64,000 nucleotides of DNA, from NCBI GenBank assembly GCA_965227515.1, contig CBDDFZ010000001.1, forward strand, positions 864,001 through 928,000, in the 5' to 3' direction. The notes under the pieces were generated by a model. It was given only the letters and a program-made list of their open reading frames with translations, did no database searches and was not told where the DNA came from. This document shows positions 60,992 through 64,000 of this stretch, piece after piece. Position 1 is the first letter of the stretch. The number at the start of each line of letters is the position of its first letter. The stretch comes from Alphaproteobacteria bacterium. Its GTDB lineage: Bacteria > Pseudomonadota > Alphaproteobacteria > CALKHQ01. The position numbers and the translations under genes are program-made.

Positions 60992-62277
60992 CCGACACCC
61001 GCATCACTGCCGTCACCGGCCGCCGGGTGTGGGATTCGCGCGGGCGCCCGACCGTCGAGGCCGAGATCGCGCTGGCGAGCGGCGTCACCGGCCGGGCGAT
61101 CGCACCCGCCGGGGCCTCCACCGGGCGCCACGAGGCGGTCGACAAGCGCGACGGGGGCACGGCGTTCGGCGGGCTCGACGTCGCAGGCGCGCTGGACGCA
61201 CTTACCGTCGAACTGGCGCCGGCCCTGATCGGCCGGAATGCGGCGGACCAGGCCGGCATCGACAAGGTGCTGAGCGAGACCGATGGCACGCCTGATCTGG
61301 CCCGTTGCGGCGGCAACGCGGTGATCGCGTGCTCGATGGCCACCGCCCATGCCGCGGCCGCCGCCGCCGGGCTGCCGTTGTGGCGTTGGCTGGCCGCCAA
61401 CGCGCCGGTCACCGACATGCCGATCCCGGAGATCCAGGTCTTCGGCGGCGGCGCGCACGCCAGCCGGCGGGTTGACATGCAGGACTTTATGGTGGTCGCG
61501 GTCGGCGCCGCCCACATCGCCCAGGCATTCGACTGGACCGCCGAGGTCTATCGCGCTGCCGGCGGGCTGATGGCCGAGGCCGGCAAGCTCGCCGGGGTGG
61601 CCGACGAGGGCGGCTGGTGGCCGCAATTCGAGGGCAACGAGGACGCACTGGATTTCCTGGTCCGCGCCATCGAGCGCGCGGGCCTGCGTCCCGGCGAGGA
61701 TGTCGCCATCGCCCTCGACATCGCCGCCACCCAGTTGCTGGACGGCGAGCATTACCGGCTGGCGGCGGAGGATCGGCGCCTGGACGGCGACGAATGGCGC
61801 GAACTGCTGCTCGGCTGGTGCCGGCGCTACCCCATCGTGTCCATCGAGGACCCGTGCGCGGAGGACGACTTCGACGGCATGGCGGCGTTCGTGGCCCAGG
61901 TGCCGGCCGGCATCATCACGGTCGGCGACGACCATCTGGCGACCGCGCCGGAACGGATCGCCGATGCCGCCGGCGCGCGTTCCTGCACCGCGGCCCTGAT
62001 CAAGCCCAACCAGGCCGGCACGCTGACCCGCGCGCACCACGCCCTGAACGACGCCCGCGCCCATGGCTGGGCCACCATCGTGTCGGCCCGCTCCGGCGAG
62101 ACCGAGGATGTGACCGTGACCCATCTCGCCGTTGGCTGGGGCGCCGATCAGCTCAAGGTCGGCTCCTTCACCCGTTCCGAACGGATGGCGAAGTGGAACG
62201 AGTGCCTGCGCATCGACGAGGCCCTCGGTGGCGGCCTGCCGCTCCGGCGGCCCCGGGCGTGGGTTGGAGGATCGTAG
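60988..62277 (+). CDS. Divergent enolase paralog
   Basis: DSRGRPTVE, GASTG, DEGG, SIEDP, VGDD, IKPNQ, RSGETED, RSERMAK; ATGA overlap with the kinase. Confidence 0.9.
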   Translation: MTDTRITAVTGRRVWDSRGRPTVEAEIALASGVTGRAIAPAGASTGRHEAVDKRDGGTAFGGLDVAGALDALTVELAPALIGRNAADQAGIDKVLSETDGTPDLARCGGNAVIACSMATAHAAAAAAGLPLWRWLAANAPVTDMPIPEIQVFGGGAHASRRVDMQDFMVVAVGAAHIAQAFDWTAEVYRAAGGLMAEAGKLAGVADEGGWWPQFEGNEDALDFLVRAIERAGLRPGEDVAIALDIAATQLLDGEHYRLAAEDRRLDGDEWRELLLGWCRRYPIVSIEDPCAEDDFDGMAAFVAQVPAGIITVGDDHLATAPERIADAAGARSCTAALIKPNQAGTLTRAHHALNDARAHGWATIVSARSGETEDVTVTHLAVGWGADQLKVGSFTRSERMAKWNECLRIDEALGGGLPLRRPRAWVGGS

Positions 62278-62327
62278 CCCGGGTGAAACGAAGTGGAACC
62301 CGGGTTTCGCTGCGCTCCACCCAGGCT
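62274..62327. repeat. GTAG-type REP, interrupted at its terminal CT|AC by the IS110 element
   Basis: GTAGCCCGGGTG..CACCCAGGCT plus AC at 63757-58; its TAG is the enolase stop codon. Confidence 0.87.
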
Positions 62328-62349
62328 TCTGTAACGGGCCATTGTTGGT

Positions 62350-62600
62350 CAATCCCTTTTTCGTCGTCCCGGCGCCTGGGTCATGCTTCTGTACGGGGTC
62401 GGCGCACGGCCGCCACCAAGATGGATATGCGAGGATCGGTCGGTCCAATCTACGGAAGCGTGCTCTCGTGCGAGGCGACATCCTGGATGGCGGCCTGACC
62501 TGATCCATCGTCCCGGCGCGGGACGGCGCTTGACGGGCCGGTGTCTGCGCCCGCCGAAGCTCGTGTGCTGGTTCTCCCTATGCGGCGGTCGTCTTTGCCA
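62350..62600 (-). ncRNA. Predicted bridge/seek-type guide RNA
   Basis: Two stem-closed internal loops matching target and donor sequences; transcript ends unknown. Confidence 0.75.
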
Positions 62601-63644
62601 TTAGGCCGCTGCCATCGCCGGGCGCACCGGTCCGGCATGGTTGAACGCGGTGCCGTCAACCCACATCCGGTGCATGATCACGGCGAGCCGGCGCGCCAGC
62701 GCGACCTTCGCCTTCCTCATGCCCGCACGCCTGGCCAGCTTCATCGCCCAGCTCTTCAGCCAGCCGCCCTCGATCGGCCGGGTCAGAACCACGTGTGCCG
62801 CCTCATAGAGGGCCGAGCGCACATCGGCGTCCCCTACCTTCGATATCCGCCCCATCACCTCGCTCTCGCCCGACTGGCGCTTGGTCGGCGTCAGGCCGAA
62901 GTGCGCACCCACCAGGCGCGACGAGGCAAACCGCCCGGGGTCGTCCACTCCCGACAAGTAGGTCAGTCCGACAATGCTCCCCACGCCCGGCACCGTCATC
63001 AGCAGGCGAGCGCGATCGTCGGCCTGCGCCGCCGCCCGGACCTGCCGGTCCAGCGCCGTGAACGATAGCAACAGGCCATCGCGTGCCGACAGCAGCGCCC
63101 CCGCCACCGCCTCCAGTACCGGATGCCCCGCCACAAGCTCCGAAATACGTGTCGAAAAGCTGCGCCTGGTGGTGTGCCCTACCTTCAGCCCGAAGTTCCG
63201 CAGCTGACCACGAAGGTGCATCTCAAGATCGTGCAGCTTCGCGCGGAGCTGGTCGCGACCCTTCAAAAGGGCCCGCATCTCCTGGGCCGCCAAAGACTTG
63301 CAGTGAACCGGCCGAAACCAGCCCACACGCATCAGCTGAGCAATCCCGCGTGCGTCCGAGCGGTCCGACTTCACCGGCATCGTCGAAAGGGCCCGCGCAA
63401 CATGACGCGTCTCCAGCAACTCAACCGAAAGACCGCCCTGCGCGCACTCCCGCACAAGCCATTGCGACAACGGCCCCGCCTCAAGACCAATCCGCTCAAC
63501 CGAAATCCCCAAAGACCCAAACCACAACAACAAACCCGCCGGCGTGCTCGCAATACGAGCCTCGCAGACAATCCCGCCCGCGCCGTCAACAACGCATACC
63601 GATGACCATTCCAAAGAAACGTCAATCCCGGCATAGTAGTTCAT
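62601..63644 (-). CDS. IS110-family DEDD recombinase/transposase
   Basis: GIDVS, GLEAG, KSDRSDA, TVPGVG, GLTP..RQSG; GAGGAG RBS. Confidence 0.95.
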   Translation of the reverse strand: MNYYAGIDVSLEWSSVCVVDGAGGIVCEARIASTPAGLLLWFGSLGISVERIGLEAGPLSQWLVRECAQGGLSVELLETRHVARALSTMPVKSDRSDARGIAQLMRVGWFRPVHCKSLAAQEMRALLKGRDQLRAKLHDLEMHLRGQLRNFGLKVGHTTRRSFSTRISELVAGHPVLEAVAGALLSARDGLLLSFTALDRQVRAAAQADDRARLLMTVPGVGSIVGLTYLSGVDDPGRFASSRLVGAHFGLTPTKRQSGESEVMGRISKVGDADVRSALYEAAHVVLTRPIEGGWLKSWAMKLARRAGMRKAKVALARRLAVIMHRMWVDGTAFNHAGPVRPAMAAA

Positions 63645-63773
63645 GGTCGTCTCTCCTCGATGTCTTGGAGCGGCAAACCCGACTCCGTGTATGACACCGA
63701 CATCTTGAGGGACGACCACTCATGCACGCCACCAAACAAGGGCCGTTAGCCCATCTACAACGTCCGGTGCGCC

Positions 63774-64000
63774 TCAACCCGCCGCGATGTACTGCTCCAG
63801 TGCGTCGCGTTCGTGCTGCAACTCGCCCAGGCGGTGCTTCACCACGTCGCCGATGCTGATTATGCCGACCATGCGGTCGTTGCGCATCACCGGCAGGTGG
63901 CGGATGCGGTGGTCGGTCATCAACTGCATCAGCTTGTCGAGCGTGTCGTCCGGCGTGCAGGTGATGACGTTCGCGGTCATGTAGTCCCTGACCGGCCCGT
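63774..64000 (-). CDS. CBS-domain protein, 3' part (5' end beyond the window)
   Basis: MT..VITC.PDD, RIRHLPV, GIISIGDVVK. Confidence 0.9.
   Translation of the reverse strand, partial: GPVRDYMTANVITCTPDDTLDKLMQLMTDHRIRHLPVMRNDRMVGIISIGDVVKHRLGELQHERDALEQYIAAG

Follow-up and report, generated by a model that had tools for sequence, protein, structure and literature searches.

Downstream of a transposase gene in a 64,000-nt stretch of an Alphaproteobacteria bacterium genome (contig CBDDFZ010000001.1, positions 864,001 to 928,000 of the forward strand; hereafter called the window, whose own numbering is used throughout) lies a 143-nt region on the minus strand (62384..62526). The results presented here strongly indicate, with a probability that we put at about 0.9, that this region is the guide RNA gene (a bridge RNA, or long seekRNA) of an IS1111-type insertion sequence (IS) of the IS110 family. 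Its limits are those of a covariance model, R1, which it matches with 107.6 bits. An earlier reading made from the letters alone (the sequence-only reading) had proposed a bridge-type RNA at this place, with a target-binding loop followed by a donor-binding loop and with guides spanning the core. This order is indeed that of the IS621 bridge RNA and of the seekRNAs of IS1111 elements.

The DNA partners of such guides are defined by the ends of the IS and by its target. A search of the element's own genome (5.5 Mb, two contigs) revealed 20 full copies of 1414-1429 bp and one internally deleted copy. The copy in the window, of a type that we name variant A, is 1429 bp long (62326..63754, minus strand) if the AG core is counted once, at the right tip. 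All 20 full copies align at their ends as ...GTAG|ATGGGCTAACGG...GTTACAGAAG|CCYGGRTG..., share the tips ...GTAG|ATGGGC...ACAGAAG|CCYGG... and have the same orientation at GTAG|...|CCYGGRTG. The sequence-only reading had assumed the correct IS ends and the correct circle junction. The AG core is present once in the left flank and once at the right tip of the IS. The left flank GTAG (63755..63758, minus strand) is a remnant of a repetitive extragenic palindrome (REP) that ends in the core AG (CT on the plus strand); it precedes all 20 copies, and 14 of them are preceded by the longer form CGTAG. When the two flanks are joined they read GTAGCCYGGRTG, which is the end of an imperfectly palindromic REP of ~53 bp. 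In the window this target REP is located at 62273..62325 (minus strand), and one of its ends is split by the IS. The genome contains tens of 55-bp matches to the target REP stretch, and the unsplit end ...GTAGCCYGGRTG... is found at ~130 other genomic sites; with 20 copies inserted at REP ends, the proposal that a multicopy REP end is the target is borne out. Because the joined flanks rebuild the unsplit REP end, there is no target duplication beyond the shared core, which is a trait of IS1111 elements. On the plus strand, in a frame with CT as the core, the target reads CCACCCAGG-CT-AC, and the joined ends of the circle read ...GCCCAT-CT-TCTGTA....

Subterminal inverted repeats of 18 nt are present 6 nt inside each tip (left arm 63731..63748, right arm 62332..62349, both minus strand; repeat pair I6). 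The arms are 78% complementary and contain a 9-bp core with one mismatch. The non-coding parts of the IS comprise 110 nt on the left, up to the ATG, and 275 nt on the right, from the stop codon to the tip at 62326. IS1111 elements characteristically carry subterminal inverted repeats of 7-17 bp at some distance from the tips, a short left end and a long non-coding stretch after the transposase gene. By its ends, its repeats, its non-coding layout and its mode of insertion the element belongs to the IS1111 subgroup of the IS110 family. No match to the whole IS was obtained with megablast in the plasmid collection.

Read 5′ to 3′ on the minus strand, the RNA region begins with a hairpin, P0 (CGUCCCG-CGC-CGGGACG, 62509..62525), which is also recovered by RNAalifold. 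It is followed by the 5′ strand of a stem, P1 (GGAUCAGGUC, 62497..62506), that faces the 3′ strand GACCGAUCC (62433..62441) and closes the target-binding loop; this stem is present both in the RNAalifold result and in a constrained fold. The 5′ guide of the target loop, or left target guide (LTG), is CCAUCCAGG together with the core positions AU (62480..62490), and it pairs with the gene-strand sequence AG-CCTGGRTGG beside the insertion point. The LTG stretch CCAUCCAGGAU (62490-62480) matches the plus-strand target CCACCCAGGCT (62317-62327) at 9 of 11 positions; one of the two differences is an rU:dG wobble and the other one is located at the core. Next comes an inner hairpin (62460..62479, constrained fold), whose length varies among homologues and which is left out of the covariance model. 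The 3′ guide of the target loop, the right target guide (RTG), is CGUAG (62450..62454); it has the same sense as the left flank CGTAG and pairs with the opposite strand. The handshake dinucleotide AU at 62448..62449, whose role is taken from IS621, equals the first two bases of the IS (AT).

The donor-binding loop contains the left donor guide (LDG), CCAU-CU-U (62418..62424), which is complementary to A-AG-ATGG at the circle junction; a hairpin at 62395..62417 (helices 3 and 4); and the right donor guide (RDG), UACAGA-AG or UACAGAAG (62386..62393), which is identical to the last 8 nt of the IS. Thus, the 5′ hairpin, both strands of the stem closing loop 1, the LTG with its 9/11 match and its difference at the core, the donor guides CCAUCUU and UACAGAAG and the hairpin between them were all recovered at the positions where the sequence-only reading had put them, and the GUAG that it had noted at 62453-62450 extends to CGUAG, the consensus left flank. 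The tail after the RDG (62355-62385) holds GGCGCCGGGACGA, which nearly repeats the 3′ arm of P0 (CGCGCCGGGACGA), and a motif, CCNGGCGA, that is conserved in relatives.

The covariation of guides with target and donor that the sequence-only reading had named as a check was found both across homologous ISs and within the genome. A set of 29 related loci, mostly from Alphaproteobacteria as judged by record titles, encodes transposases that are 43-69% identical, and their right ends share one layout. Guides were compared with partners in the 19 elements with a parsed right tip, which have about 10 different targets. Left out of the LTG, RTG and RDG counts were loci with a degraded (L031) or interrupted (L042) right end, second copies from genomes already counted (L035, L045 and L048), partial loci (L037, L051, L052 for its left side, L057, L058 and L059), two loci whose right tip was unparsed at that stage (L047 and L054) and the G056 loci, in which the left end was not found within 1500 nt.

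LTG pairing was measured as the longest Watson-Crick run between the 5′ segment of the first loop and the right flank, starting from the core-adjacent base. With their own flank the LTGs pair over a mean of 6.7 nt, and over at least 5 nt in 16 of the 19 elements (runs of 5, 9, 8, 3, 8, 7, 9, 10, 7 and 3 nt in ten elements and of 8, 5, 9, 6, 7, 8, 5, 2 and 9 nt in the remaining nine), compared with a mean of 2.8 nt for the 322 non-own pairs with different flanks. Only four of these 322 pairs reached at least 6 nt, all of them between elements with related targets. In the window element the run is 5 nt, or 9 nt if the rU:dG wobble is allowed. The RTG equals its own left flank for a mean of 2.5 nt beyond the core versus 0.43 nt for non-own flanks, and a match of at least 2 nt beyond the core was observed in 11 of 15 elements versus 13 of 202 non-own pairs. 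In a second genome, the guide variants AAUUU and AAUUG adjoin AAATT and CAATA flanks in three copies, and two copies have a guide G against an A flank.

The donor guides follow the IS ends in the same way. In all 19 elements the RDG is identical to the right tip of the same IS along 7-8 nt, and the classes found are ACAGAAG, AGAGAAG and AGCGAAG; further classes in other loci are ACGGAAG and ACCGAA. The LDG tracks variants of the left end, with GGCAU accompanying ATGCC (L049) and CGCCA accompanying ATGGCG (L071). Of the 19 aligned rows for which a left-end candidate exists, 16 have a handshake equal to the first two bases of their IS (AU/AT in 13 and CU/CT in 3), and L071, L044 and L074 do not.

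A separate observation concerns two loci of one Hyphomicrobium metagenome-assembled genome (L047:2268-2779 and L092:1500-1800), which are 76% identical and carry a second target-loop-like module after the donor loop, giving the order target-binding loop 1, donor-binding loop, target-binding loop 2 (TBL1-DBL-TBL2); the related L054 has a single target loop. The right flank of L047, GGACGGAA, pairs with the guide of the second module, UUCCGUCC, over 8 nt plus the core, whereas only 6 of 8 positions pair with the guide of the first module, UUCGAUCC. Loci of this type could encode a bridge RNA with two alternative target loops. A literature phrase search for two target-binding loops in one bridge RNA returned unrelated papers only.

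Within the genome the 20 copies fall into two variants, which differ by a single LTG base, the seventh. Variant A (7 copies, 1423-1429 bp) has an A at this position (LTG CCAUCCAGG, ending in CCAGG), and variant B (13 copies, 1414-1420 bp) has a G (LTG CCAUCCGGG, ending in CCGGG). Elsewhere in the RNA, the sole A/B difference in the inner hairpin of the target loop is located in the loop of that hairpin, and the difference in the donor-loop hairpin, U to C, converts a U-A pair into a C-G pair, as judged by eye. Variant A adjoins CCTGG in 7 of 7 copies; variant B adjoins CCCGG in 11 of 13 copies and CCTGG, with an rG:dT wobble, in the other 2. The association between the LTG base and the T or C in the flank is significant (Fisher's exact test over the 20 copies, p=4.6e-4). 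It also holds against the background of free REP ends, which at positions 3 and 6 carry C,G (66 sites), T,G (36), C,A (21) or T,A (6) among 162 matches to a looser pattern: the probability that variant A has a T in 7 of 7 copies by drawing from this background is 3.9e-4. In addition, variant B has an A at the sixth flank base in 9 of 13 copies compared with 21 of the 87 free CCC sites (p=7.5e-4).

Occupied fractions, obtained by simple arithmetic from the free-site and copy counts, differ between site types. The C,A type, to which variant B is perfectly matched, is occupied at 9 of 30 sites, the T,G type at 8 of 44, the T,A type at 1 of 7, and the C,G type, which is the commonest one and the least used, at 2 of 68. 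Pairing with a C,G site requires a wobble for variant B, and a mismatch as well as a wobble for variant A. The most diverged copy, c19 (G000:C1:694702-696206, 90% identity), is also the sole copy at a site that perfectly matches the variant A LTG (CCTGGATGG); beside it lies a short piece of REP, immediately after which a second complete CGTAGCCTGGGTGG site is found.

These data raise the possibility, which we hold tentatively and rate slightly below even odds, that natural retargeting has taken place in one genome: two intact IS lineages that are one LTG nucleotide apart would divide the CCTGG and CCCGG REP ends between them, with occupancy graded from Watson-Crick pairing over wobble to mismatch, and their clade would in addition have given up LTG pairing at the first core base. 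With respect to that base, the LTG core is AA (L034) or CA (L032 and L053) in sister elements and a fully pairing CU in a more distant clade. The LDG core varies in a roughly opposite manner, being CU here, and GC, GA or GG where, in that more distant clade, the LTG has CU. The sequence-only reading had also supposed that the element is probably reprogrammable, and the natural guide variants suggest that this may be so.

Evidence for the fold came from relatives. In an alignment of 20 sequences (A1), from which R1 was built, RNAalifold recovers three parts of the fold: the hairpin at the 5′ end, the long-range stem that closes loop 1, and the hairpin inside loop 2. A search with R1 gave 20 full matches and one partial match in the element's own genome, where no solo copies of the RNA region were found, and, in a sample of 150 other genomes of the class, matches in 5. 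In a second alignment (A2), consisting of 35 R1 matches (33 distinct rows) fitted to the model, 92.3% of cells are paired compared with 78.5% for shuffles (0 of 500 as high) and 35-57% when the partners are slid. Changes on both sides, that is, compensatory changes, occur in 14 of the 18 pairs. For helix 1 (P0) the values are 88% paired with both-side changes in 2 of 3 pairs, for helix 2 (P1) 90% and 6 of 8 pairs, and for helices 3 and 4, which form the donor-loop hairpin, 94% and 99% paired with both-side changes in 6 of 7 pairs. When the four guides were held unpaired, the minimum free energy (MFE) fold of the 143-nt RNA (-46.0 kcal/mol) reproduced the drawing made in the sequence-only reading. 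The predicted structure is established by comparison with relatives, not by the single sequence.

Several observations weigh against the assignment of this region as a guide RNA gene. Without constraint, the 143-nt RNA has an MFE of -62.1 kcal/mol in a fold that pairs the LTG strand with the LDG strand and is preferred by ~16 kcal/mol, and the fold of a 271-nt segment is not unusually stable (z -1.43). The pair counts of A2 lean towards structure because that alignment was fitted to the model, and counts across homologues overstate independence, the homologues being related. No Rfam 15 family matched in a cmscan of 61800-64000 (E up to 1). A conserved stem closing the donor loop was found neither among the relatives nor in the window; some relatives have short complements at this place, GCAC/GUGC in L032 and L034 and UCCUC/GAGGA in L052, none of which is conserved. 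The LTG does not match its own flank in 3 of the 19 elements (L033 and L041, 3 nt each, and L056, 2 nt). Finally, where the LTG faces the core G, every one of the 20 copies has an A instead of a C.

The plain MFE fold, of either 271 or 143 nt, in which the LTG strand is paired with the LDG strand, was rejected as a working fold, as the comparative analysis does not support it. This alternative fold is driven by GGCCGCC, 5′ of the LTG (62491-62497), which is complementary to GGCGGCC in the donor-loop hairpin (62403-62412). Both sides of this GRCCGC/GCGGYC pairing change in L032 and L033 (GACCGC with GCGGUC), amounting to one switch from G-C to A-U; the pairing is broken in L031 and absent in other clades.

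The alternative that best survives these data, which we nonetheless consider improbable, is that the working RNA consists of the first stem-loop only, i.e. the target loop of ~80-100 nt that would correspond to the "peak" seekRNA, and that the IS ends are recognized by the protein through the subterminal repeats. This would be in line with the description of ISEc11, ISPa11 and ISKpn4, where the main transposase-bound RNA is 82-96 nt long and has two target matches, the ~150-nt form being scarcer (PMC11187229), and also with the 18-nt subterminal repeat and the lack of a conserved donor-loop-closing stem reported above. Against it, identity between RDG and right tip is maintained in 19 of 19 elements over several tip variants, the LDG tracks the left-end variants, 6 of the 7 pairs in the donor-loop hairpin show compensatory changes, and the donor loop of IS621 is a proven guide (PMC11208160).

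Still less probable, and in our view very unlikely, is an explanation at the DNA level, according to which the motifs act as copies of the ends and the target, serving as transposase-binding or decoy sites, and there is no guide RNA. The right tip CCCGTTACAGAAG is nearly duplicated in the RDG stretch CCCGTACAGAAG, which as such could be a protein-binding repeat. Against this, the compensatory changes seen in four helices point to a fold, of RNA or of a single strand, that is under selection, and homologous ISs need the RNA in trans (PMC11187229). Moreover, two of the guides are complements of their DNA partners and the other two have the same sense, as would be expected if both strands are paired with, but not if a protein site is repeated. 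Chance similarity in a GC-rich 3′ untranslated region, which might be invoked given the shortness of the guides (4-11 nt) and the insignificant single-sequence fold, is contradicted by the own versus non-own comparisons, the association of alleles with targets and the shuffle and slide controls, which place the matches beyond chance and leave this explanation almost no weight.

Upstream of the RNA region lies the transposase gene (62601..63644, minus strand; 347 aa). Residues 5-150 match PF01548 (DEDD_Tnp_IS110; E 1.6e-12) and residues 212-287 match PF02371 (Transposase_20; E 2.3e-20), and the protein scores 238.4 bits, against a cutoff of 140, with the NCBIfam equivalog NF033542, "IS110 family RNA-guided transposase". 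The protein is a DEDD transposase of the IS110 family, which annotation pipelines already name RNA-guided. Its C-terminal domain aligns with the solved transposases of IS621 and ISCro4 (IS621 8wt6: E 2.9e-10), with the motif GLTPTKRQSG placed on GLTPRRYESG of chain 8wt6 and S258-G259 on the SG motif of the IS621 and ISCro4 transposases. The motif corresponds to the family's conserved GL-P----S(T)G, and its serine is presumably the catalytic nucleophile, as in IS621. The open reading frame is intact in 20 of 20 copies (345-347 aa). The sequence-only reading had called the protein compact; this does not stand, as IS1111 transposases are described as having 330-350 aa (PMC11187229) and a length of 347 aa is ordinary among them.

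Of the sequencing runs listed for this sequence, five are of DNA type and none is recorded as RNA. No sigma-70-like promoter site was found within 62200-63850. A TTGACC sequence at 62347..62352 (minus strand) is likely the -35 box of a promoter that exists in the circle only: TTGAC is conserved in relatives, the box being located 20-22 nt from the right tip in all 19 elements scanned. Joined to the left end, it gives TTGACC-N17-GAAGAT, the last hexamer being GAAGCC in the integrated copy. By analogy with ISEc11 and ISPpu10, the promoter is probably completed only in the excised circle. Three terminator-like matches are located in the inverted repeats at the IS ends and were not read as terminators.

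Another feature of the left end is a stem-loop (63644..63718, minus strand; inverted repeat I21, 12 nt, 92% complementary) whose 3′ arm lies over the ribosome-binding site and the start codon. In this structure, which is kept in homologues, GGTCGTCCCTC pairs with GAGAGACGACCA, the segment that overlaps both the ribosome-binding site and the ATG. The probable effect of the stem-loop is to keep read-through transcripts from being translated. The defective copy of the IS (G000:C1:998353-999208, loci L021/L022) has an internal deletion of ~590 bp; its initial ~720 bp, with the left end, and its final ~150 bp, with part of the RNA region (covariance model score 38 bits), are retained.

Based on these features we propose the following model, in which expression of the RNA, its binding and its part in catalysis are predictions. 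The circle promoter would drive a transcript that comprises the transposase mRNA and then the guide RNA, the latter being trimmed from it, so that the guide RNA would be transcribed with, or just after, the transposase mRNA. As sequence and covariation show, the RNA folds into a 5′ hairpin, a stem closing the target-binding loop, and a donor-binding loop around a hairpin. The LTG (CCAUCCAGG) pairs with one strand of the REP end and the RTG (CGUAG) with the other strand across the AG/CT core, and the LDG (CCAUCUU) and RDG (UACAGAAG) likewise pair with the two strands of the circle junction. If the element acts like its homologues IS621 and ISEc11, the circle and the REP end would be united by a tetramer of the transposase with this RNA. 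Strand exchange at the core is proposed to insert the IS in one orientation without duplication beyond the core. As for the handshake AU after the RTG, its pairing with the incoming end of the IS would become possible once strands have been exchanged, not earlier.

Much of this is known from related elements. For IS1111 members, binding of seekRNAs, their necessity and their reprogramming have been described for ISEc11, ISPa11, ISKpn4 and ISPst6 (Siddiquee et al. 2024, PMC11187229), and the same report describes RNA co-purification, the same guide order and reprogramming for ISEc11, ISPa11 and ISKpn4. Bridge RNAs have been predicted for 93.0% of the IS1111 elements in ISfinder (Durrant et al. 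2024, PMC11208160). As in the IS1111 seekRNA elements described in PMC11187229, the RNA region studied here is located in the non-coding region 3′ of a DEDD transposase of 330-350 aa in an element with subterminal inverted repeats, the guide of the gene (top) strand lies 5′ of the guide of the other strand, nothing but the shared core is duplicated, and a likely -35 box at the right end would form a promoter in the circle. Use of a REP as target is shared with ISPa11 (PMC11187229), and a bridge RNA in the right end with ISPpu10 and other predictions for the IS1111 group (Durrant et al. 2024). The present element differs from the IS1111 seekRNA elements in its target, the GTAG|CCYGGRTG REP, in its guide sequences and in the two guide alleles that coexist here.

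Read in the CT frame, the RNA has the order described for IS621, LTG-RTG-(handshake)-LDG-RDG, with LTG and LDG having the sense of the top strand and pairing with the bottom strand, and RTG and RDG pairing with the top strand (PMC11208160). The two elements also share the CT core and a REP end as target (...GGCTAC here and ...GGCCTAC in IS621), and in both a wobble is found against the commonest natural target: rU:dG here, for variant A, and rG:dT in IS621, where the wobble against the commonest natural REP target is tolerated (PMC11208160). The target-loop handshake AU faces the donor AT as in IS621, whose handshake guide is reported to pair with the donor only after top-strand exchange and thus to favor insertion (PMC13626964). 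In contrast to IS621, the RNA is located 3′ of the gene and on the AG-core strand, not in the left end; the LTG has 9 nt, instead of 7, with its first core position unpaired; the subterminal repeats are long; and the proteins are detectably similar in their C-terminal domains only (E 2.9e-10). A strong preference for pairing with both core strands has been described for IS621 (PMC11208160). The lost LTG pairing at the first core base, if our tentative interpretation is true, would imply a looser core recognition than the strict IS621 rule.

Earlier publications cover the mechanism, the 3′ location of the RNA in IS1111 elements, the targeting of REPs and natural retargeting, and what has been known since 2024 of the mechanism and of its prevalence in IS1111 is unchanged by this element; the only unusual points are the guide alleles within one genome and the non-pairing LTG core base, which are modest additions. 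What the element adds is a delimited, multi-copy and apparently active bridge recombinase system of the IS1111 type from an alphaproteobacterium, in which all four putative guides and the handshake can be read from the sequence. Its two guide alleles provide a ready-made test of specificity, one RNA base versus one DNA base with ~130 free sites as background. For bridge editing, the LTG core base that does not pair is relevant to the design rules.

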